Positions 1 to 48,007 of a stretch of DNA of 48,007 nucleotides are shown one piece after another. The notes below the pieces were generated by a model. That model saw only the letters and a program-made list of their open reading frames with translations. It was not told where the DNA came from and searched no databases. A program made the translations under genes and the position numbers. Origin of the DNA: a virus. Location of the stretch: the IMG/VR virus record IMGVR_UViG_3300045988_078200. One strand, 5' to 3'. Every line of letters begins with the position of its first letter. Position 1 is the stretch's first letter.

Positions 1-119
1 GAAAGCCTGAACGACCTGATCGAGACGGCGACGGACAGAATCGCGGCGGAGGTTTTGGGGCTAACCACAGAGCAATACGCGGCGGAAGTGCAGGCCGCGG
101 CGGAGAAAGCAAAAAAAGA
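1..119. repeat. Terminal direct repeat, copy 1. It is identical to 47889-48007, indicating circular closure or terminal redundancy.
   Basis: Read directly. GAAAGCCTGAACGACCTGATCGAG...GGCGGAGAAAGCAAAAAAAGA is present at both window ends, 119/119 identical. Confidence 0.97.
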
Positions 120-126
120 AAGATGA
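1..126 (+). CDS. 3' end of the junction-spanning RHH-like gene that starts at 47754. The stop TGA is at 124-126.
   Basis: Position 1 is in frame with the ATG at 47754 (offset 135 nt). The translation ...ESLNDLIETATDRIAAEVLGLTTEQYAAEVQAAAEKAKKER ends at 124-126. Confidence 0.65.
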   Translation, partial: ESLNDLIETATDRIAAEVLGLTTEQYAAEVQAAAEKAKKER

Positions 127-136
127 ATGAGCATAG

Positions 137-172
137 AAAACGGCGGGCGTTGAATCATGCCCGCCGTTTTTT
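137..172. terminator. Bidirectional intrinsic terminator between two convergent genes.
   Basis: AAAACGGCGGGC (137-148) pairs with GCCCGCCGTTTT (159-170). An A-run lies upstream and a T-run downstream. Confidence 0.75.
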
Positions 173-173
173 C

Positions 174-992
174 TTACCCGTTCAACGCCGCGTGCTGGTA
201 AAAGTCGTCGCAGATCACGGGAATGTTGTTGTAATCGAAGTTGTCGAAGTTGATCTTGCCGATGGTGTCTTTGTAGAACGTCGCTTTCATCACGGTTTCG
301 GTGGACGTGTTTCCGTAAGCGTCCACGAGCGGGAAAGACCAGAAAAGCGTTACGCGCCCGATGTCGTCGCGGGATTGCAGGGATTCCAGAATGTCGGCGG
401 CCTGCAACAGCATTCCTTTCCGAACCATATTCGAGGTTAAATTATCTTTCCCGGAAAGATAGATGTCCACAAAGGAGCCGTCCGAACTTTCCCCGACGCT
501 GGCCGCGTCGTAAATACTGACATCTTCTTTTTCGGCATTGGCCGCGGTGATCGCGTCGTCAACTGCCTGTTCCAGCGTGGCCGGAGTTTCCGGCGCGGCG
601 GGGTCATCCGTGGGCGCGGGTTCTACGGGAGCCGGGGCGGGGTTCGGGTAAAGTTCCTCCCCGTTGTATTCCACGCGGTCAACCACGCCGTCGGTGTAAT
701 AGACATCGTACACGTAAAGCCCGGCGGAAACCTGACAATGCCCGTCGTCGCCCGCCTTTCTGGTGACATTTGTTACTTTTGCTTCCATGCCGCAGGACAC
801 AAGGACGATGAATACTTCATCGGCCTGTTCCGGCGTGATCGCCATACCGGAAGAAAGCGCGCCTTGCGAATCGGCGTAAAAGTCGTACTGTTCGGACAAT
901 TCGGCGTGCTTGGGTGTGTCGTAGTCCGCAAGACAGCCGGAGAGGGACAGCGCAAGGCAGACGGCGAGAAGCAGGGAAATCAATCTTTTCAT
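174..992 (-). CDS. Lipoprotein of two domains joined by a Pro/Ala-rich linker. Function unknown.
   Basis: 272-aa ORF. The N-terminus MKRLISLLLAVCLALSLSGC gives a signal peptide plus an LSGC lipobox. Confidence 0.8.
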   Translation of the reverse strand: MKRLISLLLAVCLALSLSGCLADYDTPKHAELSEQYDFYADSQGALSSGMAITPEQADEVFIVLVSCGMEAKVTNVTRKAGDDGHCQVSAGLYVYDVYYTDGVVDRVEYNGEELYPNPAPAPVEPAPTDDPAAPETPATLEQAVDDAITAANAEKEDVSIYDAASVGESSDGSFVDIYLSGKDNLTSNMVRKGMLLQAADILESLQSRDDIGRVTLFWSFPLVDAYGNTSTETVMKATFYKDTIGKINFDNFDYNNIPVICDDFYQHAALNG

Positions 993-1074
993 GTGTGGTC
1001 CTCCATTCCGCCGCCCGGAGTGCCGGGCGGTTCGTGTTTTACGGCTGAATCCGTTGAATTTTTTGGATTCTGAC

Positions 1075-1135
1075 CTTTAACACAATTATCAATGGGGCGC
1101 GTGTTAAAGTCAAGAAAAATGCGAAACTTTAACAC
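1075..1135. promoter_or_regulatory. Three copies of a 9-bp motif, CTTTAACAC, upstream of the XRE regulator gene. Candidate operator set.
   Basis: CTTTAACAC occurs at 1075-1083 and 1127-1135. Its reverse complement GTGTTAAAG occurs at 1101-1109. Confidence 0.5.
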
Positions 1136-1151
1136 ACGGAGGGAAACACTG

Positions 1152-1400
1152 ATGAAGATTTATGACTACAAGGGGCGGAAGAATCTTTGCGGAAACCGCG
1201 TAAAAGAGGCACGCGCCCGGCTGAAAATCACACAAGAGGACCTTGCCGCACGGTTGCAGGTGGAGGGAATCACGATGGAGCGGGACAGCGTGAGCAGAAT
1301 AGAAATCGGAACGCGGTTCGTGACTGATTATGAACTTGTCGTTCTCGCAAGGGTCCTGAACGTGTCTTTGGAATGGCTTACAGAGCAGGACGAAAAATAA
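1152..1400 (+). CDS. XRE/Cro-CI-type helix-turn-helix transcriptional regulator.
   Basis: GGAGGG lies 8 nt before the ATG at 1152. The stretch NRVKEARARLKITQEDLAARLQVEGITMERDSVSRIEIGTRFVTDYELVVLARVLNVSLEWL is a typical HTH_3 pattern. Confidence 0.85.
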   Translation: MKIYDYKGRKNLCGNRVKEARARLKITQEDLAARLQVEGITMERDSVSRIEIGTRFVTDYELVVLARVLNVSLEWLTEQDEK

Positions 1401-1433
1401 TTACTTGCGTGAGTATGAAGCGCATGTTATAAT
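1401..1433 (+). promoter_or_regulatory. Sigma-70-like promoter TTGCGT-N17-TATAAT, overlapped by a degenerate copy of the 16-bp palindromic operator.
   Basis: The -35 TTGCGT is at 1405-1410 and the -10 TATAAT at 1428-1433. TTACTTGCGTGAGTAT (1401-1416) matches 47697-47712 at 15 of 16 positions. Confidence 0.6.
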
Positions 1434-1477
1434 ATCCCACAGCGGCGGAGGAAACCCCGCAGGAACAAGGGAGAACA

Positions 1478-1508
1478 AAAGGACCCGCCCGGCTGGGGCG
1501 GGTCCTTT
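1478..1508 (+). terminator. Leader hairpin (terminator- or attenuator-like) between the 1405 promoter and the transposase start.
   Basis: AAAGGACCCGCC (1478-1489) pairs with GGCGGGTCCTTT (1497-1508) across a 7-nt loop. The downstream T-tract (GCTTTA) is weak. Confidence 0.45.
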
Positions 1509-1527
1509 GCTTTACGGAGGGTATCGC

Positions 1528-2577
1528 ATGGGACACGTATTCAGTCACCTGTCAAAGATGGACCGATATAAAATCGAAGCGTTGCTGAACAAGGGGATTT
1601 CAAAGCAGGAAATCGCGGACGAATTACATGTGCATGTAAGCACGATTTACCGGGAGATCAAGCGCGCCCGCTGGCAGTATTTGGACGGTGATACATGGAT
1701 TACAGAAGATCGCTATAACCCGGACGGGGCGGAAAAGCGATACCGCGAAAACCTCGCCGCAAAAGGCGCGCCGCTGAAAATTGGGAAAGACTTTGAACTT
1801 GCGGAATACATAGAACAAAAGATTATCGAGGAAGATCGTTCGCCCGCCGCGGCCCTTGCCGAAATCAAGTTGGAGGGACGGACGTTCAAAACCTCGATTT
1901 GCGTAAGCACGCTTTACAGTTACATTACAAAGGGCGTTTTCCTGTCCCTTACCAATAACAATTTGCCGGAGAAATCGAAGCGGAAGCGGGAGTACAAGAA
2001 AGTTGAAAAGACCGGAAAGCGTGCGTCGTATGGGAAAAATATTGAAAAACGCCCGGACGAAGTGGACCAGAGAAGCACTTTCGGACATTGGGAGGGCGAC
2101 ACGGTTTACAGTAAAAAAGACGGGTCAAAAGCCCTGTTTGTGCTGACAGAGCGTTTGACCCGATGGGAAATCATTACAAGAATTAAAGACCGGACGGCGG
2201 CAAGCGTTGTAAAGGCAATGGACCGCATAGAACGGAAATTCGGCGCGGACCTTTTCGCAAAGGCATTCAAGACAATCACATTCGACAACGGGGGCGAGTT
2301 CTCCGACGTGAAGCGGCTGGAACGGTCCGCGGTGCGAAAGGGAAAGCAGAGGACAGCGGCTTACTACTGTCACCCGTATTCATCGTATGAACGCGGGTCA
2401 AATGAGTGCCAGAACAAAATGATTCGCCGGAAGTTTCCGAAAGGAACTGATTTCGGAAAAGTGTCCACGGCGGAGATCGAGGCGGCGGAAGCGTGGATGA
2501 ACAATTATCCGCGTGAAATATTGGGATGGAAAACGGCTGAAATCTGCTTCCGGGAGCAGATCGCCGCCCTCGCCTGA
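1528..2577 (+). CDS. IS30-family DDE transposase/integrase.
   Basis: GGAGGG precedes the ATG at 1528. The N-terminal HTH is ISKQEIADELHVHVSTIYREIKR. The catalytic core shows HWEGDTV, TFDNGGEF and YYCHPYSSYERGSNECQNKMIRRKFPKGTDF. Confidence 0.88.
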   Translation: MGHVFSHLSKMDRYKIEALLNKGISKQEIADELHVHVSTIYREIKRARWQYLDGDTWITEDRYNPDGAEKRYRENLAAKGAPLKIGKDFELAEYIEQKIIEEDRSPAAALAEIKLEGRTFKTSICVSTLYSYITKGVFLSLTNNNLPEKSKRKREYKKVEKTGKRASYGKNIEKRPDEVDQRSTFGHWEGDTVYSKKDGSKALFVLTERLTRWEIITRIKDRTAASVVKAMDRIERKFGADLFAKAFKTITFDNGGEFSDVKRLERSAVRKGKQRTAAYYCHPYSSYERGSNECQNKMIRRKFPKGTDFGKVSTAEIEAAEAWMNNYPREILGWKTAEICFREQIAALA

Positions 2578-2618
2578 TGTCCTAAAAATAAATTTTTATA
2601 TTTTTTTCGCATTTACTA

Positions 2619-2647
2619 TTGACATTTCCGCCCGCGCCTTGTAATAT
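2619..2647 (+). promoter_or_regulatory. Sigma-70-like promoter TTGACA-N17-TAATAT upstream of the early gene block.
   Basis: TTGACA is at 2619-2624 and TAATAT at 2642-2647, with a 17-nt spacer. Confidence 0.5.
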
Positions 2648-2748
2648 TAAATGCGAAAGAACAAACACCACGTCGAATGACGGGTGCAAGTTCTATCGCA
2701 TTTATTTTTTTACCATAACAGAGCCGGAAATACAAGGGAGGAACCGAC

Positions 2749-3558
2749 ATGACGCACGTTTCTTTTGAAGAGTACGAGGCCGCGAAAGCGGAAATCATCG
2801 GTGGAGTTCATTACAAAGAAAAATCCACATTGGAGGGGAACGTAATCCGAAAGACCTACACGACGGAAGAGAACGGGACGTTCTACGAGGTGAACGACGG
2901 CGGGCGCATCGAGTTTTGGAGCGACAAGCACCCGGATAGCCGGATTTACGATGAAAGCGAGCGGGCGGACCTCCCGGAGAATGTGGGGGCAGTTCCAGGA
3001 TATGGTGACTTGCTGGCCGAGAAAATCAGGGAAACGGCGGATTTCGCAAATCTGAAACCGTTTGAAAAATTCGTGCTGGATAACGGATATTTGTACGATT
3101 CGAGCGACGCGCTAAAAGATGGCTATGACCGGGCGTGGAAAGCACAACACGGAATCACCCTGACAGAAGAAGAGTTTGCGGCGGAGGTTATGAGCCGCGG
3201 GAAACTGGTTGACGCGTCGGGGCTTTACGAGACGGTCATGGAACACGTGAACGCGGGGCGGCTGACTGCGGGCGACGTTATGCAGTACGCGCATTACAGA
3301 TGGTGCGTGAATAGACCGGAAGCGGTTATTGCGTATCAAGTGGGCCGCGAGAAATGGGAGGTCAATAACTGTTCCGAAGAGATCACCGAAGAGGCCGCGC
3401 GGATTGAAGTTTGCGAGGAATTCGGGTTCGAGGCAAGCAGGGTAAAAATCATCGGGACCCCGTACTATGACGCGACGGACTGGAACTTCATCCGCTTTAA
3501 CTGTTCGGGGCGGGCGTGGCTGATGAAAAACGGCGAGATTTATCAAGTTTACGAATGA
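2749..3558 (+). CDS. Hypothetical protein, 269 aa.
   Basis: Long ORF with GGGAGG 8 nt upstream of the ATG. I recognised no motif. Confidence 0.7.
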   Translation: MTHVSFEEYEAAKAEIIGGVHYKEKSTLEGNVIRKTYTTEENGTFYEVNDGGRIEFWSDKHPDSRIYDESERADLPENVGAVPGYGDLLAEKIRETADFANLKPFEKFVLDNGYLYDSSDALKDGYDRAWKAQHGITLTEEEFAAEVMSRGKLVDASGLYETVMEHVNAGRLTAGDVMQYAHYRWCVNRPEAVIAYQVGREKWEVNNCSEEITEEAARIEVCEEFGFEASRVKIIGTPYYDATDWNFIRFNCSGRAWLMKNGEIYQVYE

Positions 3559-3562
3559 AAGG

Positions 3563-3596
3563 CCGTGGGCGCGGTGTACCACAACCGCGCCCACGG
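3563..3596 (+). terminator. 13-bp GC-rich hairpin after 2749-3558, with no U-tract.
   Basis: CCGTGGGCGCGGT (3563-3575) pairs with ACCGCGCCCACGG (3584-3596). Confidence 0.4.
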
Positions 3597-3623
3597 GAAG
3601 CAGAAACAGAACGGGGGTGAAAT

Positions 3624-3902
3624 GTGGTGCGGCAGTACAGATACATAGACTTTCGGGACCGGGAGCAGATTGCCGTCCGATACCTGAACGGGGACCGCGT
3701 GGCCGACATTGCCGCAGGGCTTGGCGTGACAACGGCGACGGTCTACCGCGAGTTGAAGCGCGGAGAAACGGGAGGGCTTGACCGCAACCAGCGGAGGGAG
3801 TACAACCCCGTTCTTGCGCAACAGAGGGTTCAGGAGAATTTCAAGCGGCGCGGGAAGCCCGCCGCGGCGAACGCTAAAGGAGGCGTGCGAGTTGGCAACT
3901 AA
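3624..3902 (+). CDS. Stand-alone IS30-type HTH protein, a paralogue of the transposase N-terminal DNA-binding region.
   Basis: DREQIAVRYLNGDRVADIAAGLGVTTATVYRELKRGE...YNPVLAQQRVQENFKRRG aligns with MDRYKIEALLNKGISKQEIADELHVHVSTIYREIKRAR...YNPDGAEKRYRENLAAKG from the 1528 gene. There is no DDE core. Confidence 0.65.
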   Translation: MVRQYRYIDFRDREQIAVRYLNGDRVADIAAGLGVTTATVYRELKRGETGGLDRNQRREYNPVLAQQRVQENFKRRGKPAAANAKGGVRVGN

Positions 3903-4449
3903 TTTTGAAGAGATCACCAAAAGCCCGGAAGTGCTGGGCGCGTTCCTTGCCTCTCTTCCGTACTTGGAGGGACCGTGGGACACAGAATTTCAACGTAATT
4001 TCTGCGCCGGGTGCGGACAAGTGACGTGCGACCCGATTTGCCGATACCAGCGGTTCAGGAATAACCCCAGTTGGTGGCTGACCCTTGAAGCGGAGCAATG
4101 CGAACAGGGGACGCACACGAGCGACAAAACCACGGAACAGACGGAACCGAACGTGATCGAAATTGACCCTGCGGAAGCCGAAAAGCTGATAACCACGGAG
4201 CAGGAAGCGGAAACAGAACGTTTGCGGCCCATGTTCCGCTATTTCATGGGGAAAGACCATGAAACGGGAGCAATTGAGATCGGGGCGATGGACGGCGGAA
4301 ATGTAATCACATTTTCGGAGCCGGAGGAAGCGCGCTGGTTCATCAAACATCTATCGGAACTCATTCAGGACCCGACGATTCGCAGGCTGGAAATGCGTAG
4401 GACAAGCCGGGGGGTTGCGGTGGACCGGGAGACGACGGCCAACGGTTGA
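3892..4449 (+). CDS. Hypothetical protein. The start is uncertain; I propose TTG at 3892.
   Basis: ORF 3778-4449. AAAGGAGG (3876-3883) lies 8 nt before the in-frame TTG at 3892. The upstream part of the ORF overlaps the previous gene. Confidence 0.5.
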   Translation: MATNFEEITKSPEVLGAFLASLPYLEGPWDTEFQRNFCAGCGQVTCDPICRYQRFRNNPSWWLTLEAEQCEQGTHTSDKTTEQTEPNVIEIDPAEAEKLITTEQEAETERLRPMFRYFMGKDHETGAIEIGAMDGGNVITFSEPEEARWFIKHLSELIQDPTIRRLEMRRTSRGVAVDRETTANG

Positions 4450-5882: not shown

Positions 5883-6202
5883 CGCAGGAAATCAGAACAA
5901 TCACCATTGGAGCGGGACAAGCCCACCCGCGGCGGCGGAGCCAGAAGCACACCCGGCGGCGCGTTCGGCTGAGCGGCTGGACCGTGGCGAAATATGCGGC
6001 CCTGACCGTGGCCGGGGTCCTGCTGTTTCGAGCGGGTGCGGCCTACGCCATGACAGAACGGGGATATAAGGCGATCGGCGGCGAGGTTTTCGCCCTCTTC
6101 CTCCCCGTGTTCTACTACACAATTTCCGAAACGGTGCGGGACTATATCAAGGAAATCAAATCTATTTTTCGGGAGGAAAAGGACCATGAAAAAACTTGCT
6201 GA
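5879..6202 (+). CDS. Small membrane protein with two predicted TM segments.
   Basis: Hydrophobic stretches AKYAALTVAGVLLFRAGAAYA and VFALFLPVFYYTI. Confidence 0.55.
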   Translation: MTQEIRTITIGAGQAHPRRRSQKHTRRRVRLSGWTVAKYAALTVAGVLLFRAGAAYAMTERGYKAIGGEVFALFLPVFYYTISETVRDYIKEIKSIFREEKDHEKTC

Positions 6203-6917
6203 ACTGAAACCGGGCGATCGCTTTCTGTATGGCGGCATTGAGTGGGTCAAATTCGAGGACATCGGCGCGGGAACGCTTTGTCTGGCGGCGGAGCCTGTTT
6301 TTCACCGGGCGTTCGATGAAGAGAACTGCAACGACTGGCGAAAATCCTCTTTGCGCCGGGAACTGAACGGGGCGTTCCTTGACGCGCTGGTTGCGGAGGG
6401 TGCGGACCGAGCCGCGTTCCTCGATTGGGAAAGCGACTTGACCGCCGACGACGGAATGACCGATTACGGAACCGCCGTGGACAAGATCGCTTTGCGGTCC
6501 GACGTGCTTTGCCGCAAGTATCGGGAGATCACCCCGCCCGTGGACGAATGGTGCTGGAACCTGACCCCGTGGACGTGTGACCCTGAATATTCGTACTACG
6601 TCCGCAACGTCAATTCCTCCGGCGCGATGAGCTGGAACTACGCGTTCCACGGCGACAGGGGCGTTCGCCCGCTTTGCTATCTGAAATCTGAAATTTCGGT
6701 ATCTATCCCCGGAGAGAACGACGAAGCGGAGCAGGCCGCACGCCGCGAAGAAATGAAGCTGGAAGCCGTGGACGCGATCATGTCCGCGCTGAACGATTAT
6801 CCGCCCTATTTGTGGGGCGACGCGCTGGGCGCGGCGGTTGCCGCCCTGTTCCGGTCAAAGCAGGACGCGGAAGAGATCGCGCAGGAAGAGGCAGACAAAA
6901 AGGCGGTGGAGGGTTGA
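6186..6917 (+). CDS. Second, remote DGR target protein carrying VR2 at about aa 135-164.
   Basis: 243-aa ORF. ...YYVRNVNSSGAMSWNYAFHGDRGVRPLCYLKSEI matches the TR-encoded peptide. The N-terminal region resembles that of the 40240 target (W..S.RR.LN motif). Confidence 0.85.
   Translation: MKKLAELKPGDRFLYGGIEWVKFEDIGAGTLCLAAEPVFHRAFDEENCNDWRKSSLRRELNGAFLDALVAEGADRAAFLDWESDLTADDGMTDYGTAVDKIALRSDVLCRKYREITPPVDEWCWNLTPWTCDPEYSYYVRNVNSSGAMSWNYAFHGDRGVRPLCYLKSEISVSIPGENDEAEQAARREEMKLEAVDAIMSALNDYPPYLWGDALGAAVAALFRSKQDAEEIAQEEADKKAVEG
6589..6676 (+). repeat. DGR variable region VR2.
   Basis: 88 nt align with TR 38682-38769. There are 6 mismatches, all at TR adenines. Confidence 0.9.
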
Positions 6918-7347: not shown

Positions 7348-8166
7348 GTGCGAACATTTATCAGAGAAAAGAAAATCTATTGCGGAAAGAGTTACCGGGA
7401 AGTTGACATATTCCAGTACACAGACGCACAGTACAGAGCCACAAGGCGGACCCGCTCGAAGAAAGTGCGAGAATCGGAGCCAAAGCAAAAGAACCTGAAC
7501 GACATAAACGCCCGGCGGTATTTTATCCAGCTTGGAAACCTGAATTTCGGGGACGACCCGGACGCGCTTCATGTATCGGCTACATACAGCCCGAAATATC
7601 TTCCTGCCACGGTGGAGGACGCGGAGCGGGAGGCGACAAATTACCTCCGCCGGATTTCATACCGCAGGGAGAAAGAGGGATTGCCGCCGCTGAAATACCT
7701 GCTGATCACGTCATACACCACCAAACGAAACAGCGACACCCCCGTTCGCATTCATCACCATATCGTTATGAACGGCGGGTTAGACCGCGACACGGTGGAA
7801 GAGTTGTGGAGGAAGCGGAAGCGCAAGGGCCAGAAGAAAGGTGATCGAATCGGCTTTTGCAACGCTGACCGCCTGCAAGCCGATGAAAACGGCATAGCGG
7901 CCCTTTGTGTCTACCTTGTGAAGCAGAGCGGCGGGAAGAAGCGGTGGACTTCCTCGCAGAACCTTGAACGCCCCACCAGTCGGACGAATGACGGGAAGTA
8001 CAATCGGCGGCAGATCGAGAAGTGGGCGCGGGAGCGTCCGGGGCGGGAGTTTTGGGAAAAGAAATATCCCGGCTGGACCCTGACGGACGAAGATTACGGG
8101 ATTGAGTACAAATACAACGACTTCACGGGTTGGTCAATATACCTGAAATTGAGGAAGAAAGAATAG
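7348..8166 (+). CDS. Putative HUH-type rolling-circle replication initiator (Rep_1-like).
   Basis: RIHHHIVMNG fits HxHxhhh. CVYLVKQ fits the YxVK tyrosine motif. LHVSATYSP may be motif 1. The match was made by eye only. Confidence 0.45.
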   Translation: MRTFIREKKIYCGKSYREVDIFQYTDAQYRATRRTRSKKVRESEPKQKNLNDINARRYFIQLGNLNFGDDPDALHVSATYSPKYLPATVEDAEREATNYLRRISYRREKEGLPPLKYLLITSYTTKRNSDTPVRIHHHIVMNGGLDRDTVEELWRKRKRKGQKKGDRIGFCNADRLQADENGIAALCVYLVKQSGGKKRWTSSQNLERPTSRTNDGKYNRRQIEKWARERPGREFWEKKYPGWTLTDEDYGIEYKYNDFTGWSIYLKLRKKE

Positions 8167-14002: not shown

Positions 14003-14773
14003 ATGAAAATTGTCTCCATTATCAACCTGAAAGGCGGCGTTGCAAAGACGCTAACCGCCGACAATATGGCCCACGTACTCGCTGTTTTCCACAAAAAGCG
14101 GGTTTTGCTTGTGGATAACGACAAGCAGGGCAACACGTCAAAGGCGTTCGGGGTCCATTCCTACGACGAAAAGAGCCTTTCCGACGTTCTGACCGCCCGG
14201 CGGCTGGACGTGCGGGAGGTCATCAAAAAGACCCGGTTCGAGAATATCGACGTATTGCCCGCTAACATGACGCTGATTCGCGCAAATATGGAAGTGCTGA
14301 TGGACACCACCCGGCCACAGCAAACGCGCCTGCGGGCCGCGCTGGACCCCGTAGCGGGGCAATATGACTTCTGCATTATCGACAACGCCCCGGACATCAA
14401 CATTTCCACGATAAACGCCCTTGTTGCCTCCGACGACGTGATTATTCCGATTAAGATTGACAAGTACGCTTTCGACGGGCTGGCCGAACTGAAAGAACAG
14501 ATCGAGGACACGCGGGACGACTTGAACCCGCGCTTGCGGCTGGCCGGGTGCCTGATCACCTGCTTTATCCGAGCAGACGCAGAGAAGCAGGGCGAAGCAT
14601 GGTTGCGGAGCCGCCCGGAATACCCTGTATTTGACACCCGCATTCGGTATTCGGAGAAAGTCACAGAAAGCACCTTTTCGGAAATGCCGATTGCAGAATA
14701 TAGCCGCCGGAGCGGAACGGCTATGGACTATATCGCATTTGTGCGGGAATATTTGCAGAGGGGCAAGGCATGA
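14003..14773 (+). CDS. parA: ParA/Soj-family partition ATPase.
   Basis: MKIVSIINLKGGVAKT carries the deviant Walker A. LLVDNDKQGN is also present. GGAGG lies upstream of the start. Confidence 0.88.
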   Translation: MKIVSIINLKGGVAKTLTADNMAHVLAVFHKKRVLLVDNDKQGNTSKAFGVHSYDEKSLSDVLTARRLDVREVIKKTRFENIDVLPANMTLIRANMEVLMDTTRPQQTRLRAALDPVAGQYDFCIIDNAPDINISTINALVASDDVIIPIKIDKYAFDGLAELKEQIEDTRDDLNPRLRLAGCLITCFIRADAEKQGEAWLRSRPEYPVFDTRIRYSEKVTESTFSEMPIAEYSRRSGTAMDYIAFVREYLQRGKA

Positions 14774-14979
14774 GAGAAAAGAAGCTGACCCCGGAATATT
14801 GCAAAAACGGGAAAATACGGGCGTATCAATGCGGGATTTGTGATCGGCTGGACGTGGACGACGTGACGGACAAACGCTTTTGCCGAGCGGGATTCTGGCC
14901 CGGTTGCGGGGACCCGGACGGGTGCCGGGAAGCATTCAAACTGATTACAGGTGCCGGACGAATTGGCGTACACAGATAA
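14770..14979 (+). CDS. Small Cys-rich protein between parA and parB.
   Basis: 69-aa ORF with an ATGA overlap onto parA. Confidence 0.45.
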   Translation: MREKKLTPEYCKNGKIRAYQCGICDRLDVDDVTDKRFCRAGFWPGCGDPDGCREAFKLITGAGRIGVHR

Positions 14980-15011
14980 ACCGTCCGACTCGGACAGAAA
15001 GGGCGTACATC

Positions 15012-16253
15012 ATGGGAAAATTCAATCTGAATCAGATTTTGAACAACGCGTCGCGGCAGGCGGCGGAGGGCGGGAACACCCCGCCCCGCCCCGCTGAAAG
15101 CGAGATAAAGAAAATCAGCGTCTTTGACCTTGTGCCGTCGGAAGATAACTTCTATTCCATGCGGGAGATTGAAGAACTGAAAGCGGCAATCGAGATCGCC
15201 GGGAAAGTTCTGCAAAACCTGACCGTTGTTCCGCTGGACGGTGGGAAATACAAGGTCATTGCAGGCCACCGCCGCCGCCTCGCGTCGCTGGCCCTTGTGG
15301 AAGATGGAAAGCCGCAATATGAATTCGTCACCTGTTCCGTGGAGCCGAACGAAGAGGCGGCGGAAGATCAGGAAATCCGGGACGGCCTGAACCTGATTGT
15401 CACCAACTCCCAGCGGGAGAAAACGGCATGGGATAAGATCGAGGAAGTGCGCTACTTGCGGGACGTGCTGGAAAAGGCAAAGACCCGCCCGCGGTTCGTG
15501 GCCGTCCTGCAAAGAATTGTCGCAACCGTGTTCGGGGACAGCGAGGTTCAGGCAGACGGAACCCGCGATTTTATCGCAAAAGTGCTTCACACAAGCCCGG
15601 CGCAGATCGGGCGGTATGACACCATCATTCGCCACCTGTCCCCGGAATTCAAAGAAGAACTGAAAGCAGACCGCATAAACCTTTCGACCGCCTATGAACT
15701 GGCGGGATTGCCGGAAGAGGACCAGCGGGCCGCGTTCGAGGAATACCAGAGAACCGGGGAAATTTCCATCAAGGCCGCACGGGAGCGGAAGCCGCAAGCG
15801 GCTCCGTCCCCTCCCACGCCGCAGGACGAAGAGAAAAACACCCCGCCCGCCGAACCCGTCCGGGAGCGGGAGCAGACACCACCGCCCCCGGCGCATTGCA
15901 TACCGTCCACCGTACCACAACCGGGAATCGACTGGAACGAGGAAACGGGGCGGGAAATGCCGGAGGAAAGCCCACAGGACGCGCAGGACGCGCCGGAAGC
16001 GAGCGGGGCGGGAAAAGACACGGCCAACAGAGAAACCGTCGCAAAACCAGCGCAGACGCGAAAGCCGCAAGCGACGCAGAGTGCGGGGCTTGGGATTTGC
16101 CCTTACTGCGGAAAACCGTTTGACGCGGCGCGGTCAATCGAATACAGCATTCGAGGAACGGAGGGGCGGGAGCCTGTGACATGCCCGAAGTGCGGCGGGA
16201 AAATCGAAATCCGGTGTACGGTTTCCTATTGCTGTTCCCCGGTGGAATCGTGA
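15012..16253 (+). CDS. parB: ParB-family protein with an N-terminal ParB/Srx domain, an HTH, a Pro-rich linker and a C-terminal zinc ribbon.
   Basis: VPLDGGKYKVIAGHRRRLASLAL carries the GxRR box. HTSPAQIGRYDTIIRHLSPEFKEEL is the HTH. The C-terminus reads CPYCG...CPKCG. Confidence 0.8.
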   Translation: MGKFNLNQILNNASRQAAEGGNTPPRPAESEIKKISVFDLVPSEDNFYSMREIEELKAAIEIAGKVLQNLTVVPLDGGKYKVIAGHRRRLASLALVEDGKPQYEFVTCSVEPNEEAAEDQEIRDGLNLIVTNSQREKTAWDKIEEVRYLRDVLEKAKTRPRFVAVLQRIVATVFGDSEVQADGTRDFIAKVLHTSPAQIGRYDTIIRHLSPEFKEELKADRINLSTAYELAGLPEEDQRAAFEEYQRTGEISIKAARERKPQAAPSPPTPQDEEKNTPPAEPVREREQTPPPPAHCIPSTVPQPGIDWNEETGREMPEESPQDAQDAPEASGAGKDTANRETVAKPAQTRKPQATQSAGLGICPYCGKPFDAARSIEYSIRGTEGREPVTCPKCGGKIEIRCTVSYCCSPVES

Positions 16254-38674: not shown

Positions 38675-38769
38675 AGCGTCGAATTCGTACAACGTCCGCA
38701 ACGTCAATTCCTCCGGCGCGATGAACTGGAACAACGCGTACAACGGCAACAGGGGCGTTCGCCCGCTTT
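38675..38769 (+). repeat. DGR template repeat (TR).
   Basis: 95 nt homologous to 40903-40997 and 6589-6676. It carries 22 adenines, and in the VR frame reads YNVRNVNSSGAMNWNNAYNGNRGVRPL-stop. Confidence 0.9.
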
Positions 38770-39023
38770 GATGGAACACCGGGAACGAGTAAGCCGGACG
38801 GCTGAAAGCAGAGGACCATCATCAAAGGAAGCCGCATCCCTCCGCCGCGGTGACAGCGCGACGGTAAATACAAGATTGGTGAAGCAAGGCCCACGGGAAC
38901 CAGCTTCCGCCCCGCCACGGGCGCGCGGCGGGGTCCGATGATGAAGCATTGCGACGGCAGGCGGAGGACCGCTTGCCGCCCCCGCAAGGCGGATTCTATA
39001 CACGGCAAGGAGCATTTTTTATT
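38770..39023 (+). ncRNA. DGR spacer region between TR and RT. It is ORF-free, GC-rich and likely a structured part of the DGR RNA.
   Basis: There is no plausible + strand ORF. Several GC stems are present, for example CCCCGCC...GGCGGGG around 38910-38936. Assigned by position and by analogy with the Bordetella DGR. Confidence 0.5.
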
Positions 39024-40214
39024 ATGCAACAAACAGATTTCGAGCGGGTCCACGATTTCGGGAACCTATACGCGGGGTTCTTAAAGGCCCGCCGGGGCAA
39101 ACGGGGCAAAGCGAGCGTCGCAAAATTTGAAGCAAACCTGCTGGAAGCCCTTTGCCTGCTTTCGGAAATGCTGAAGAACAAGACCTACCGCCCGTCGGAC
39201 TATTTCGTGTTCCGGGTCTACGAGCCAAAAGAACGCATCGTTATGACCAACGCGTTCAAAGACAAGGTGGTTCAGCATTCTTTATGTGACAATGTGTTGG
39301 AGCCTGCATTTTCCCGCGCCTTTATCCGCGACAACTACGCGTCGCAAAAGGGGCGCGGGACGCATGACGGCCTGTATCGGCTGGAAGCGTTTATGCGGTC
39401 CTACTATTTCGAGCGGAAAGCGCGGGAAGAACAACGGTGCCGGGAGGAGGGGTTGCCGCGGCCCGACCCGCGCGCCGCCCGCTATGCGGACGGCTGGGTC
39501 CTGAAATGCGACATATCAAAATATTTCTACTCGATTCCGCATGAACCATTGAAAGCAATGGTGCGCCGCTTCATCCGGGACCCGGACGTTCTATGGCTTG
39601 TCGATATGATCATTGACAGCACGGACGACCCCGGAATTCCGATCGGCAACCAGACTTCACAATGGTTCGCGGTCATGTACCTTTCGGGGCTTGACCATTT
39701 CATAAAAGAGAAATTGGGAATCCGCTACTATGGGCGGTATATGGACGACTTTTACTTGATTCACGAGGACAAGGCGTATTTGCAGTATTGCCGCCGGGAG
39801 ATTGAAAAGTACGTGGCCGGGCTGGGATTGAAGCTGAACAACAAGACAAATATTTTCCCGCTACGGAACGGAATTGATTTTCTTGGATTCCGAACCTATA
39901 TGACCGACACGGGGAAGATCGTGCGCAAGGTAAGGAGGAACAGCAAATGTAACGAGCAACGGAAGTTGAAGAAACAGCGGGGCTTGCTGGACAAGGGGAA
40001 AATCACCCTTGCGGCAATCGAACAGTCTTACGGAAGCTGGCGGAGCCACGCCGAAAAGGGCAACTGTCACCACCTGATCAGGGAAACCGACAGGAAGTTC
40101 AACCGCCTGTTCCCGGAAAGCAAATTGCTATGCAGAAAGAACAAAAGGCCGGAAAAGGAAAGCTATTTCTGCGGTTTTATCGCTGACCCGCGGGAAACGC
40201 TTTCCGAACAGTAA
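39024..40214 (+). CDS. DGR reverse transcriptase.
   Basis: IPIGNQTSQWFA is the DGR-specific [ILV]GxxxSQ motif. GRYMDDFYLI carries YMDD. The gene is adjacent to the TR. Confidence 0.9.
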   Translation: MQQTDFERVHDFGNLYAGFLKARRGKRGKASVAKFEANLLEALCLLSEMLKNKTYRPSDYFVFRVYEPKERIVMTNAFKDKVVQHSLCDNVLEPAFSRAFIRDNYASQKGRGTHDGLYRLEAFMRSYYFERKAREEQRCREEGLPRPDPRAARYADGWVLKCDISKYFYSIPHEPLKAMVRRFIRDPDVLWLVDMIIDSTDDPGIPIGNQTSQWFAVMYLSGLDHFIKEKLGIRYYGRYMDDFYLIHEDKAYLQYCRREIEKYVAGLGLKLNNKTNIFPLRNGIDFLGFRTYMTDTGKIVRKVRRNSKCNEQRKLKKQRGLLDKGKITLAAIEQSYGSWRSHAEKGNCHHLIRETDRKFNRLFPESKLLCRKNKRPEKESYFCGFIADPRETLSEQ

Positions 40215-40239
40215 GTACACAAAAGGAGCGTGAAGCGAA

Positions 40240-41958
40240 ATGCCGAAAGCATTAAGCACCCTCGCCGTTGGCGCGCTGGTGAAAGACACCGGAACGCTTT
40301 ACAACGGGAAACCGATCATTTGGAAGATCGCGGACAAGAACCACGCCGGGTTTCCGGCGAATTCCGTCACGCTGATCACGGAGCGCATTATCTCGCTGAA
40401 ATGCTTTGACGCTATTGAGCAGAGCAACAGCGACGGAAACCGCCGTTCCTACGGAAACAACCGCTGGATTTGGTCAAATATCCGCCGATGGCTGAACAGT
40501 CAAGCGGGGGCGGGCGCGTGGTACGCGGCCCAGCACGGGCAGGACGCGCCGCCGAACAACGCGAACGTGTGGAGCAACTACAACGAGTACGAGGCGGAAG
40601 CGGGCTTTCTGGCGGGATTCTCCGCGAACTTTATTGCCGCCCTGCTGACCACGAACCGGACCGTCGGCAAAGCGCAGGTGGACGGCGGCGGGACGGAGAC
40701 ATGCACCGACAAAATCTTCTTTGCCACGTCAACGGAAGTCGGCTTGTCGGGCGACGTGGTGGCCGGAAGCAAACTTGCGCTGTTCAGCGACGACGCTTCC
40801 CGGCAGGCAAAGCCGACGGCGGAGGCGGTAAGCAAGAGCGAGTACCAGACAAGCAGTTTGAACGCAAATTCGTTCTGGTACTGGTGGCTTGCGGACGCTT
40901 ACGCGTCGAGTTCGGACGACGTCCGCAACGTCACTTCCTCCGGCGCGATGGACTGGTGCAGCGCGTACGCCGGCAACCGGGGCGTTCGCCCGCTTTGTAA
41001 TCTAAAATCTGAAATCTTGGTATCTGACAGCCCGGATTCGGACGGCGCATACAGCATCGTATGGAACCGCGCCCCGTCGGTCCCGGATTCCATCGACGTT
41101 CCGAGCGACGTTCGGGGCGGCGAAAGCCTGATTGTGAATTGGGGAACGTCCACCGACCCGGACAACAACCTTTCGGGGTACGTCCTCGAACGGCAGTACA
41201 ACGGCGGCGGATGGGCGCAGGTCTACAAGGGAATCAACCGGACGCACACCGACCAGATCACAAAGGGATGGGAGAATGTGGCGTACCGGGTCAAAGCATA
41301 CGACAGCGCGGGCGCGGAATCGGCGTACAAGACCAGCGCGACGCGGACGGTCATCAACAACACGCCGCCCACGATCAGCGGGACAGATACGGACCTTGGG
41401 GCAAAGACCGGAGCGTTCGACCAGAAATACACCGTCACAGACCCGGACAGCGGCCAGACGATCACCGTCGTTGAGAAGATCGACGGGGCGCAAAAGCGGT
41501 CCTACGCCGCGACCAGCGGGCAGGAATACACGTTCAGCGTGACCGCGGATGAATGGCGGAAGCTGTTGAACGGGTCCCACACGCTGACGGTGACGGCGAC
41601 GGACAATTACGGCGGAACCGCGACGCGGACTTACACATTCAGCAAGAACGAAACCGAAATTGAACTGACCCTTGCAACGCCCCTTGAAGCCGACGACATG
41701 GTGACAAAGGCGATCATGTCCATTACCCGGCAGATTCCGGCGGGCGCAGAATTCACCGTGGAGGCGTGCAACAACGGCAACGACGATTCCCCCACGTGGG
41801 AGGACGTTACGCAGGCCGTCACCAGCGGGAGCAAGTTTTTCCTTTCCAACGACAGCAAGACGGCGGCGGAATGGGGATTCAATTTCCGAATCAAGGTGAA
41901 GCGGAACAGCGCAAGCGGGGATTGCTTCATTTCTTCCGTGGGAGGTAATTTTGAATGA
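40240..41958 (+). CDS. DGR target 1. Fibre- or receptor-binding-like protein with the variable domain at about aa 222-253, followed by FN3/Ig-like domains.
   Basis: 572 aa. WYWWLADAYASSSDDVRNVTSSGAMDWCSAYAGNRGVRPLCNLKSEI contains VR1. It is followed by SLIVNWGTSTDPDNNLSGYVLERQYNGGGWAQVYKG (FN3-like). Confidence 0.85.
   Translation: MPKALSTLAVGALVKDTGTLYNGKPIIWKIADKNHAGFPANSVTLITERIISLKCFDAIEQSNSDGNRRSYGNNRWIWSNIRRWLNSQAGAGAWYAAQHGQDAPPNNANVWSNYNEYEAEAGFLAGFSANFIAALLTTNRTVGKAQVDGGGTETCTDKIFFATSTEVGLSGDVVAGSKLALFSDDASRQAKPTAEAVSKSEYQTSSLNANSFWYWWLADAYASSSDDVRNVTSSGAMDWCSAYAGNRGVRPLCNLKSEILVSDSPDSDGAYSIVWNRAPSVPDSIDVPSDVRGGESLIVNWGTSTDPDNNLSGYVLERQYNGGGWAQVYKGINRTHTDQITKGWENVAYRVKAYDSAGAESAYKTSATRTVINNTPPTISGTDTDLGAKTGAFDQKYTVTDPDSGQTITVVEKIDGAQKRSYAATSGQEYTFSVTADEWRKLLNGSHTLTVTATDNYGGTATRTYTFSKNETEIELTLATPLEADDMVTKAIMSITRQIPAGAEFTVEACNNGNDDSPTWEDVTQAVTSGSKFFLSNDSKTAAEWGFNFRIKVKRNSASGDCFISSVGGNFE
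40903..40997 (+). repeat. DGR variable region VR1.
   Basis: 95 nt align with the TR. There are 11 mismatches, 10 of them at TR adenines. Confidence 0.9.
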
Positions 41959-46219: not shown

Positions 46220-46248
46220 ATTATACTCACGTGAGTATGAAATGTCAA
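46220..46248 (-). promoter_or_regulatory. Leftward consensus promoter TTGACA-N17-TATAAT with the perfect palindromic operator ATACTCACGTGAGTAT (46223-46238) in its spacer and -10 element.
   Basis: On the minus strand the sequence reads TTGACAtttcatactcacgtgagTATAAT. Confidence 0.7.
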
Positions 46249-46901: not shown

Positions 46902-47471
46902 TTATCCGGCCACGAACACGCCCAGCGGAGAGCCACCCGCAGACCGCCACCCGCGGCGGTGAATGTCGGAGAGGCGGACCCGTTCGGGACGGTCCGGGCG
47001 GCTGTCCCAGCGAATCAGGGCAAACACGCCGCCGCGGAAGAAACGACCGTCGGGGACATCCTCGAAGCCGATCACCGTTCCGCCCTCCACGGGATAGCAG
47101 GAACCGCAGACGCATTCGACGCGCTGGCCGATCATCACAATCACAGTTCCGTTGTCGGCGGGCTGGGAAATGGTGATCACGTTGGCGGGGGCCGCGTCCG
47201 CTACCGGAGCTGGGGCGGCAGGCTTTTCCACGGCGGGGGCCTCTTCCACCTGAACCTCGCGTTCAGCGCGGAACGTGGGAGCCATAGAATAGCGGTCCGG
47301 CTGGATATATTCGCCGGAATCATCGAAGCGAATCTTGGAACGGCGGGATTCGCCCATATACTCATAAGAAACGGTTTTTGCGGTCCGCCCGGTGATCTTG
47401 ATGGAGAAAACGCACTCGCTGTCACAAATGCTACGCGTGAAGTATTCCTTGCCAATCTCAAACTTGTTCAT
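46902..47471 (-). CDS. Hypothetical two-domain protein with a Pro/Ala linker.
   Basis: GGGAGG lies upstream of the ATG at 47471 (MNKFEIGKEY...). Confidence 0.6.
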   Translation of the reverse strand: MNKFEIGKEYFTRSICDSECVFSIKITGRTAKTVSYEYMGESRRSKIRFDDSGEYIQPDRYSMAPTFRAEREVQVEEAPAVEKPAAPAPVADAAPANVITISQPADNGTVIVMIGQRVECVCGSCYPVEGGTVIGFEDVPDGRFFRGGVFALIRWDSRPDRPERVRLSDIHRRGWRSAGGSPLGVFVAG

Positions 47472-47620
47472 GTGATTACCTCCCATATATGAAACCAGAA
47501 GTTGAAGTGTTGTCGTTACCGTGTCGGCCCCCTTTTCGTGTCGGCCCGTAAGGTTGGCCCCCGCCGTATTCTTTACGCCCCGGCGGGTGGGCGGCTTGCG
47601 CTTCCCTCTTTCTGTCTCTT

Positions 47621-47649
47621 ATTATACTCACGTGAGTATGAAAAAGCAA
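47621..47649 (-). promoter_or_regulatory. Leftward promoter TTGCTT-N17-TATAAT with the perfect palindromic operator ATACTCACGTGAGTAT (47624-47639).
   Basis: On the minus strand the sequence reads TTGCTTtttcatactcacgtgagTATAAT. About 45 bp are similar to the 46205-46250 region. Confidence 0.65.
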
Positions 47650-47668
47650 GATGGGAAGTTGCACAAAA

Positions 47669-47684
47669 ATACTCACGTGAGATT
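47669..47684. promoter_or_regulatory. Degenerate copy of the operator.
   Basis: ATACTCACGTGAGATT matches the palindrome at 14 of 16 positions. Confidence 0.5.
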
Positions 47685-47696
47685 GTATAGATTTTC

Positions 47697-47729
47697 ATAC
47701 TTGCGTGAGTATTTGAAAAATGATATAAT
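47697..47729 (+). promoter_or_regulatory. Rightward promoter TTGCGT-N17-TATAAT, overlapped by the operator variant ATACTTGCGTGAGTAT.
   Basis: The -35 is at 47701-47706 and the -10 at 47724-47729. It lies 25 nt upstream of the RHH gene start. Confidence 0.65.
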
Positions 47730-47753: not shown

Positions 47754-48007
47754 ATGGAAAAGAAAAAGTATGCGTGCAACACGCGGGCGAAGAACAAGTG
47801 GAACGCCGAAAATTACGACCGCCTTTACCCCTATGTGAAGATCGGGAAAAAGGCGGTCTACCAAAAAGCGGTAGAAGCTGGCGGATTTGAAAGCCTGAAC
47901 GACCTGATCGAGACGGCGACGGACAGAATCGCGGCGGAGGTTTTGGGGCTAACCACAGAGCAATACGCGGCGGAAGTGCAGGCCGCGGCGGAGAAAGCAA
48001 AAAAAGA
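47754..48007 (+). CDS. Small ribbon-helix-helix/Arc-like putative regulator. This is the 5' part; the gene runs off the window end and continues at 1-126.
   Basis: ATG at 47754 follows GGAGG (47741-47745). The translation is MEKKKYACNTRAKNKWNAENYDRLYPYVKIGKKAVYQKAVEAGGFESLNDLIETATDRI... The frame stays open through the terminal repeat. The gene lies directly downstream of a TTGCGT-N17-TATAAT promoter. Confidence 0.65.
   Translation, partial: MEKKKYACNTRAKNKWNAENYDRLYPYVKIGKKAVYQKAVEAGGFESLNDLIETATDRIAAEVLGLTTEQYAAEVQAAAEKAKK
47889..48007. repeat. Terminal direct repeat, copy 2, identical to 1-119.
   Basis: Same comparison as copy 1. Confidence 0.97.

Follow-up and report, generated by a model that had tools for sequence, protein, structure and literature searches.

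The stretch of DNA analysed here, which we call the window, is the viral record IMGVR_UViG_3300045988_078200 of IMG/VR, 48,007 nucleotides (nt) in length. Its positions 1401–2647 carry a transposase gene, the promoter and leader of this gene, and the two tips of the mobile unit to which the gene belongs. The gene (1528–2577, plus strand) encodes an IS30-family DDE transposase of 349 amino acids (aa) and points outward, towards the right tip of the unit. The protein has the HTH_38 and rve domains of Pfam, and it matched the NCBIfam model transpos_IS30 (NF033563) with 228.8 bits, compared with a cut-off of 80. The PHROGs family phrog_4646, annotated as 'transposase', matched it over the full length (2.4e-135). 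The three catalytic residues are found in the motifs HWEGD (D191), FDNGGEF (D253) and RGSNE (E293). The N-terminal helix-turn-helix (HTH) domain also gave weak matches to Sigma70_r4_2 (1e-4). A preliminary description of this DNA had seen a clear IS30 core in the 349-aa protein, and the Pfam and NCBIfam matches and the catalytic residues bear this out.

The window is circular. Bases 1–119 repeat exactly at 47889–48007, which gives a genome of 47,888 bp; this 119-bp overlap is the assembly signature of a circular contig and not a biological terminal repeat. Nearly all genes are carried on the plus strand, and they describe a contractile-tailed phage. PHROGs and Pfam identified a complete virion and lysis set, comprising the small and large terminase subunits, portal, protease, major head, sheath, tube, tape measure, baseplate, fibre and endolysin. 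Further genes encode a replication initiator, a RecU-like resolvase, ParA/ParB-like proteins and a diversity-generating retroelement. An XRE-type HTH regulator of 82 aa (1152–1400, plus strand; Pfam HTH_3, 1.3e-8) is encoded directly upstream of the transposase promoter, and an HTH_3 gene of 81–82 aa occupies the matching place in three relatives (loci L005, L006 and L293). Besides the transposase, no tyrosine, serine or Mu-type integrase was found in the PHROGs and Pfam searches of about 45 open reading frames (ORFs), which took in every ORF of at least 250 aa in a coding-like frame; the sole resolvase was the RecU-like protein, and very small or novel recombinases could escape such a scan. 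The preliminary description had likewise placed the transposase in the slot beside the XRE regulator with no other recombinase, and the same searches uphold that view.

The ends of the mobile unit were located by comparison with relatives. More than 100 related metagenome or genome loci stop at 2630 or start at 2633, with unrelated host DNA outside. Similarity to the window ends at 2630/2631 in L004–L006, L010, L012, L013, L015, L017, L034, L036 and many more loci, with different DNA beyond each of them, and it begins at 2632–2634 in L088, L089, L091–L100 and L102, with different DNA before each. One contig of 58.6 kb carries both host junctions, approximately 48 kb apart. Because similarity breaks at 2630 and 2633 next to varied neighbours, the mobile unit is the whole 47,888-bp phage. 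The transposase gene, whose stop codon has its last base at 2577, thus reaches almost to the right tip at 2630; host DNA in integrated relatives starts 53 nt past the stop codon.

The two ends are inverted repeats. The right repeat (2602–2630, plus strand) terminates at G2630 with the tip sequence ...CGCATTTACTATTGACATTTCCG; it contains the core TTTTTTCGCATTTA and an outward-facing −35 element, TTGACA (2619–2624), located 6 nt from the tip. The left repeat (2633–2661, minus strand) begins at C2633 with CGCGCCTTGTAATATTAAATGCG..., and it contains the core TTCTTTCGCATTTA on the minus strand (2648–2661) and a −10 element, TAATAT (2642–2647), 9 nt from the tip. The arms 2602–2620 and 2643–2661 pair across base 2631, and these subterminal 19 nt are 89% complementary. 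Three copies of the conserved repeat core TTYTWTCGCATTTA exist in the 48-kb window, all of them within 2602–2704 and none before the transposase gene; therefore, there are no inner ends beside either of the two IS30-type genes of this phage, and a single pair of ends exists today. An AT-only block of 25 nt (2583–2607), in the most AT-rich 28-mer patch of the window, is the subterminal part of the right end and not a separate oddity. It is nearly invariant in L004, L005 and L006, and the coding DNA just before it varies. The preliminary description was right about its AT-richness but extended it to 2610. It also reported no terminal inverted repeats between 1434–1527 and 2578–2720 and no recognisable ends of an insertion sequence (IS). 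An IS-sized pair is indeed absent. However, repeats are present within the second of these intervals, at 2602–2661, and they are ends that belong to the whole 47.9-kb genome.

The terminal position of the transposase gene is unchanged in relatives whose enzymes are 95, 82, 76, 72 and 55% identical in aa sequence, and its divergence matches that of the neighbouring phage genes. Three metagenome contigs (transposases 95% and 82% identical) are colinear with the window through the lipoprotein-like gene, the XRE gene (82 aa) and the transposase gene. They lose similarity exactly at 2630 and continue into housekeeping genes, such as those for an Na/Ala symporter, pantothenate kinase and GlyRS. Phage nd12 (GenBank OR777946.1) carries the gene at the same end, with 55% aa identity and with three small genes between the XRE gene and the transposase gene. 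Many of the best 80 viral contigs have the transposase gene at the very end of the contig, and the right tip is also the exact end of a 1,137-bp contig that represents 1,282 sequences. These short contigs carrying the gene are phage ends, not IS copies, and every close homologue of the transposase whose context was read sits at a phage end. Using a pattern that matched both ends, we retrieved 79 further loci (L167–L245) from genomes of Oscillospiraceae and other Clostridia. The prophage ends were found across many Oscillospiraceae and Ruminococcaceae genera (Oscillibacter, Lawsonibacter, Neglectibacter, Pseudoflavonifractor, Acutalibacter, Agathobaculum and Ruthenibacterium) and also in some Lachnospiraceae. 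The closest matches to the ends of the window are in 'Bacterium 210917-SL.2.15' (92%) and the Ruminococcaceae metagenome-assembled genome UMGS1101 (93%).

Taken with the gene content, the ends make it very probable that 1401–2647 is the right-end mobility module of an IScream-type phage, temperate and with a contractile tail, and that the whole 47,888 bp acts as one IS30-like element. IScream phages are phages with an IS30-type transposase (Wirbel, Hickey et al., Nature 2025; PMC12823448), and they were recognised again in a later report (PMC12934698). Integration through an IS30-like DDE enzyme was one of two hypotheses in the preliminary description, and it is supported by the conserved terminal position of the gene and by the host junctions at the tips. 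The other was the recent jump of an ordinary IS30-family IS between an early promoter and the early genes of the phage. Such an IS would contain a full and intact IS30-family transposase, as is present here, and the stretch 1434–2647 is near IS30 in size. However, relatives at 55–95% aa identity all have the gene in place, with a divergence like that of the adjacent phage genes, and the promoter and leader hairpin of the gene are conserved in them. The preliminary description had proposed a comparison with close relatives and a search for prophage junctions in host assemblies. In the relatives compared, the transposase was always present and the flank break at 2630 was precise, and neither an empty site in sister phages nor an IS-sized copy of the transposase was found; the search yielded many host junctions with tips at 2630 and 2633. 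No copy of the repeat core precedes the gene, host DNA begins at 2631, and the short contigs with the transposase represent phage ends, as described above. The only candidate for an IS-sized pair of inverted repeats around the transposase gene, 1430–1454 and 2625–2649, is a weak match (72%) and belongs to the left end of the phage. A recent IS insertion therefore has an almost negligible probability. A composite transposon, which moves by its outermost ends and has the phage genes between two IS30 elements that each possess a pair of ends, was the picture first drawn for IScream phages in PMC12823448. An IS30-related gene lies near each end of the window phage, and this picture may well describe the origin of the element. 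The second gene (3624–3902, plus strand) points inward and encodes a truncated protein of 92 aa consisting of the HTH only (Pfam HTH_38, 2.5e-9). It is 32% identical to residues 5–82 of the transposase (E = 2e-8), and the catalytic domain is absent. However, this gene is located 991 nt inside the left tip, behind the first gene of the left end (2749–3558, plus strand), which encodes a 269-aa protein with no family match and relatives co-located in 28 viral contigs. In addition, the restriction of the core to three copies at 2602–2704 leaves no inner ends and only one pair of ends today. As a description of the present element, the composite transposon is quite unlikely.

The window was assembled in the circular form, in which the ends are abutted across a 2-nt coupling sequence, CC (2631–2632). 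We compared 27 circle junctions, 15 from the window group and 12 from a group resembling phage nd12 (the nd12-like group). Within each group, they differ only at the two spacer bases, which are CC in the window and AT, GA, CG, TG, AA, GG, TT or others elsewhere. Loci L007, L008, L009, L011 and L014 run straight across the junction as the window does. Both forms therefore exist among the relatives, with more than 100 integrated junctions and the 27 circle junctions. In circles of IS30, the ends are abutted across 2 bp from the donor flank (PMC9333248). Because the spacer of the phage circles is likewise 2 nt long and variable, we infer that the same chemistry operates, and each spacer would record the last site that the phage left.

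The −35 element of the right end and the −10 element of the left end form a putative junction promoter, TTGACA-N17-TAATAT (2619–2647, plus strand), which exists only on joined ends. It is the best promoter-like match in 900–3000, with agreement at 10 of 12 positions. The nd12-like group keeps the same geometry of 6 + 2 + 9 nt with the sequence TTGACT-N17-TATCAT. Junction promoters are known in the IS3, IS21, IS30 and IS256 families, in which they drive the transposase (PMC9330008). In the window, the full transposase gene is located upstream of the junction; therefore, the junction promoter would read into the left-end genes instead. A terminator-like long hairpin with a U-run (inverted repeat I2; 2647–2711, plus strand) lies at the predicted start of this transcript. 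The third copy of the repeat core (2691–2704) is located in its 3′ arm; thus, the hairpin may double as a transposase-binding site in the DNA and as a terminator in the RNA. In most of the 27 diverged left ends examined, the fold recurs together with a T-run, and its inner hairpin varies and covaries. Further end types were seen in L018, L026, L030, L031, L040, L064–L066 and L075–L077. Their left ends are, for example, TGGGCGGCGTAATATTAAAAGCAG or TGTGCGGAGTAACATTAAAAGCAG, their right tips end in TTTTAGC or TTTTTCA, and they also have a variable 2-nt spacer and a downstream hairpin with a T-run.

Integration duplicates the target. The duplication was exactly 15 bp in all eight independent pairs of right and left flanks and 14–16 bp in five pairs of the nd12-like group, which were corrected by hand. 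Duplications of 2–3 bp, as in IS30, were looked for and are absent, since the pairs gave 15 bp. The 59 non-redundant left flanks are otherwise mutually unrelated, but they share a consensus that reads, outward from the tip, N17-AAAWW-N4-TTGACA-N15-TG-N-TATAAT. A promoter at an offset of 25–27 was detected by strict criteria in 29 of the 59 left flanks, compared with 1 of 51 right flanks and a mean of 0.19 in shuffled left flanks. By relaxed criteria, the corresponding values were 39 of 59, 1 of 51 and a mean of 1.58. The strict cases fall almost entirely on a single register (25/29 at offset 26 and 4/29 at offset 27). In the nd12-like group, 15 of 21 left flanks had a promoter at offset 25–27 by relaxed criteria. 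Information in the flanks is highest at the −35 positions (1.0–1.2 bits); the TG and −10 positions, 21–29 nt further away, reach 0.4–0.7 bits. The left tip thus lies 26 bp and the right tip 41 bp upstream of the −35 element of a host sigma-A promoter, and this promoter always faces away from the phage. Unrelated housekeeping genes (smc, valS, glnS, a dihydroorotase-like gene, rpsT, dnaX, efp, recJ, miaB and secG) and tRNA operons follow these promoters. Judged from these flanks, insertion takes place upstream of many promoters in one register and one orientation, and it would spare the core promoter and its A/T-rich upstream element.

These data make it reasonably probable that transposases of the IScream type are promoter-guided integrases, which place the left joint 26 bp and the right joint 41 bp upstream of an active sigma-A −35 element, in one orientation and with a 15-bp duplication, probably by docking on RNA polymerase. 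An association with promoters could also arise by survival, if insertion were nearly random and only harmless insertions upstream of promoters persisted. All of the insertions examined are natural and have already been selected, and intergenic insertions are generally better tolerated. However, selection cannot yield the single-nucleotide register of the strict cases or the one orientation seen in the contrast between left and right flanks, and the register recurs in the nd12-like group, although its transposase is only 55% identical. We therefore consider survival a very unlikely explanation; the register and the orientation point to a property of the integration machinery rather than to selection alone. 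The transposase could also read the target DNA directly without RNA polymerase, for example, by placing an HTH similar to sigma region 4 on TTGACA. The right end has a TTGACA sequence 6 nt from its tip, the N-terminal HTH weakly matches Sigma70_r4_2, and the −35 positions are the most informative of the flank. However, TG and the −10 element are also enriched, at a distance that is beyond a single HTH, and TTGACA is 6 nt from the cut in the end but 26 nt from it in the target. Direct reading is possible but rather doubtful. Docking on RNA polymerase that is already bound at the promoter is favoured over it, since −35, TG and −10 all show enrichment at one constant distance. Docking is our leading guess as to how promoters would be recognised, and we hold it with modest confidence. 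We also considered whether the target mimics the phage's own end, as in the end targeting of IS30, and rejected this idea; only TTGACA is shared, and its distance is different. No report of promoter targeting or of 15-bp duplications in the IS30 family was found in the literature that we searched, which was itself incomplete.

Expression of the transposase appears to be linked to the phage switch. The predicted transposase promoter (1401–1433, plus strand) consists of TTGCGT-N17-TATAAT at 1405–1433, located 95 nt before the ATG codon, and includes an extended −10 element, TGTTATAAT, at 1425–1433. A variant of a phage operator, (A/T)TACTTGCGTGAGTAT (1401–1416), overlaps the −35 element (1405–1410). 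The preliminary description had pointed out this promoter, its distance from the gene and the location of its −35 in the operator motif of the switch; the 14-mer ACTTGCGTGAGTAT at 1403–1416, which is identical to 47699–47712, confirms the relationship. With a −35 that agrees with the consensus at only 3 of 6 positions, this promoter was missing from the results of our promoter scan. Nevertheless, the operator, the −10 element and their spacing are kept in 11 relatives down to approximately 71% nt identity, whereas the neighbouring non-coding DNA diverges. The consensus of the operator variant in the relatives at this promoter is ATACTTGCGTGAGTAT.

The operator motif family gave nine strand-hits at five sites in the window, compared with 0.4 expected. 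Three copies (47624–47639, 47669–47684 and 47697–47712) are located in the switch region (47617–47729), which has divergent promoters. Another copy (46223–46238) lies in the spacer of a perfect TTGACA-N17-TATAAT promoter (46220–46248, minus strand). The copies are of two kinds: a 16-bp palindrome, ATACTCACGTGAGTAT, occupies the spacer of two minus-strand promoters (46248–46220 and 47645–47617), and the variant ATACTTGCGTGAGTAT overlaps the −35 element of two plus-strand promoters (the transposase promoter and 47701–47729). Because one type of operator is present at four promoters, a single DNA-binding protein could control all of them, including that of the transposase. A different set of inverted repeats, GTGTTAAAGT / ACTTTAACAC, is located at 1068–1138, in the divergent region between the XRE gene and the lipoprotein-like gene (174–992, minus strand), whose predicted promoter is TTGACT-N17-GATAAT at 1113–1085. 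These repeats are possibly the own operator of the XRE protein.

A hairpin is located in the leader, between the promoter and the ribosome-binding site (1478–1508, plus strand). The preliminary description gave its position correctly and its stem as 12 bp; the stem is in fact a perfect one of 13 bp, followed by a weak U-tail. The fold of the leader has a predicted energy of −41.4 kcal/mol (z = −2.5). The stem is retained in relatives through compensatory changes, and the loop ranges from 5 to 14 nt. The hairpin is probably an attenuator or a terminator. A search of 1–4000 with Rfam for a leader or small RNA gave nothing relevant, and one match (E = 0.96) was far below the threshold.

A possible life cycle can be drawn from these features and from the mechanism of IS30. 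The transposase would connect one end with a position lying 2 nt beyond the other, producing a circle that retains 2 nt of the former flank. Once joined, the ends would be the reactive substrate, in which the transposase cuts both tips and inserts them in the target. In the lysogen, the operator over its −35 element would keep the transposase promoter off together with three other phage promoters, and all four would be released on induction or infection. The leader hairpin would hold expression of the transposase low. End joining would at the same time build the promoter that reads into the left-end genes through the terminator-like hairpin. As this promoter needs both ends, it would drive the left-end genes only in the circular form. 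The joined-end promoter would thereby signal the integrated or circular state to the phage.

Several points weigh against this interpretation. Function is predicted from sequence throughout, for the activity of the transposase as well as for both promoters, the operator and the hairpins. The inverted repeats are poor at the very tips, with 15 matches in 23 terminal positions, and are good only in the subterminal 19 nt. A duplication of 15 bp does not agree with that of IS30 itself, which is 2 bp, and approximately one third of the left flanks have no recognisable promoter at the expected offset. A 46.4-kb prophage, IMGVR_UViG_3300045988_027025, has both junctions on one contig (L122 at the right and L098/L165 at the left) and shows no duplication, which may be due to a rearrangement or to recombination between two copies. 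No operator-binding protein was recognised; a 194-aa protein (46902–47486, minus strand), an 86-aa protein starting at 47754 and three others had no Pfam or NCBIfam match. Finally, an episomal phase may matter as much as integration. The gene for the replication initiator and the ParA (AAA_31) and ParB-like genes are located in 7348–8166 and 14003–16253. Because of these genes, the circular form could be replicated and partitioned as an episome, in addition to being integrated.

The diversity-generating retroelement occupies 38676–41958. Its template repeat is at 38676–38770 and its reverse transcriptase gene at 38949–40214. The variable repeat (40903–40997) lies inside the gene of a Hoc-like protein and shares 88% identity with the template; most of the differences fall on template adenines. 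A second copy resembling a variable repeat is found at about 6582–6676, in a DUF6273 gene (region 6186–6917) near the left end.

The window offers a clean, complete and circular example of an IScream-type phage, and its comparison with relatives gives the ends to the base pair, the circle junction, the duplication length and the landing site. From raw sequence alone, the earlier reader had spotted a phage type whose description dates only from late 2025. Since promoter architecture is common across Bacillota, a phage that lands at promoters could, if this reading is true, lysogenise hosts of different genera or families with no need for a conserved attachment site. Landing guided by promoter architecture, and not by a particular gene, would account for the unusually broad host range reported for IScream phages, and it would leave host genes intact. 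It would also mean that DDE transposases have come to target promoters twice independently, with TnGBS as the earlier case, and that a virus is now among them for the first time. Such prophages, which standard prophage finders cut wrongly, can be delimited by simple sequence rules, namely their tips, the duplication of 15 bp and the promoter 26 bp away. A landing site of this kind also makes the integration reaction directly testable.

The IScream class was already published in 2025 (PMC12823448); therefore, this kind of phage is not new. Like the window, IScream phages are prophages of gut Clostridia from several host genera, whose two ends carry, respectively, a full-length, outward-pointing IS30-family transposase gene and a truncated gene of the IS30 type. 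They also share the absence of any other integrase, complete virion genes and the existence of integrated and circular forms. Nothing contradicts the membership of the window in this class, although its single pair of ends does not fit the composite-transposon picture of PMC12823448. The text of that paper has no mention of an inverted repeat, a target site, an insertion site or a promoter. What is added here to the published description therefore appears to be the location of the tips, the 2-nt spacer and 15-bp duplication, the targeting of promoters, the junction promoter and control by the operator.

IS30 of E. coli and its family share with the window a transposase composed of HTH and DDE domains and inverted repeats of approximately 20–30 bp at the tips, which are imperfect in the window. 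They also share a circle in which the ends are joined across 2 bp (PMC9333248) and an outward-facing −35 element of the right end that makes a promoter with the left end (PMC9330008). However, IS30 is 1.2 kb in size and duplicates 2 bp (PMC9333248), whereas the element in the window is 47.9 kb and duplicates 15 bp. IS30 targets palindromic hot spots or IS30 ends, whereas the phage targets a position upstream of promoters. Unlike in IS30, the transposase gene of the window is at the right end and reads outward, so the junction promoter would drive other genes and not the transposase. Long duplications (19–26 bp) are made by another member of the IS30 family, IS1630 of Mycoplasma fermentans. ICE6013 of Staphylococcus aureus is a large conjugative element with an IS30-like transposase, and its circle contains a short coupling sequence. 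Its duplications are short, to our knowledge, and we know of no reported promoter targeting by this element.

Phages of the Mu type resemble the window in that they are tailed and integrate at many sites by a DDE (RNase H-fold) transposase. However, the virion-type or circular assemblies of the window and phage nd12 hold joined ends and not host flanks, and the window has its own replication initiator. Homologues of MuA or MuB were not found in the window. For these three reasons, replication by transposition is unlikely.

TnGBS inserts 15–17 bp upstream of the sigma-A promoters of unrelated genes by means of a Mutator-like DDE transposase (PMC3942029). The TnGBS/ISKra4 group and the window have in common a large element, a DDE transposase that replaces a phage-type integrase, and insertion at a fixed short distance upstream of sigma-A promoters. 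TnGBS is conjugative, carries a Mutator-like transposase (p-MULT 4) and inserts at 15–17 bp, whereas the window is a virus with an IS30-family transposase, and its nearer joint is 26 bp from the promoter. The resemblance between them is functional and would be convergent.

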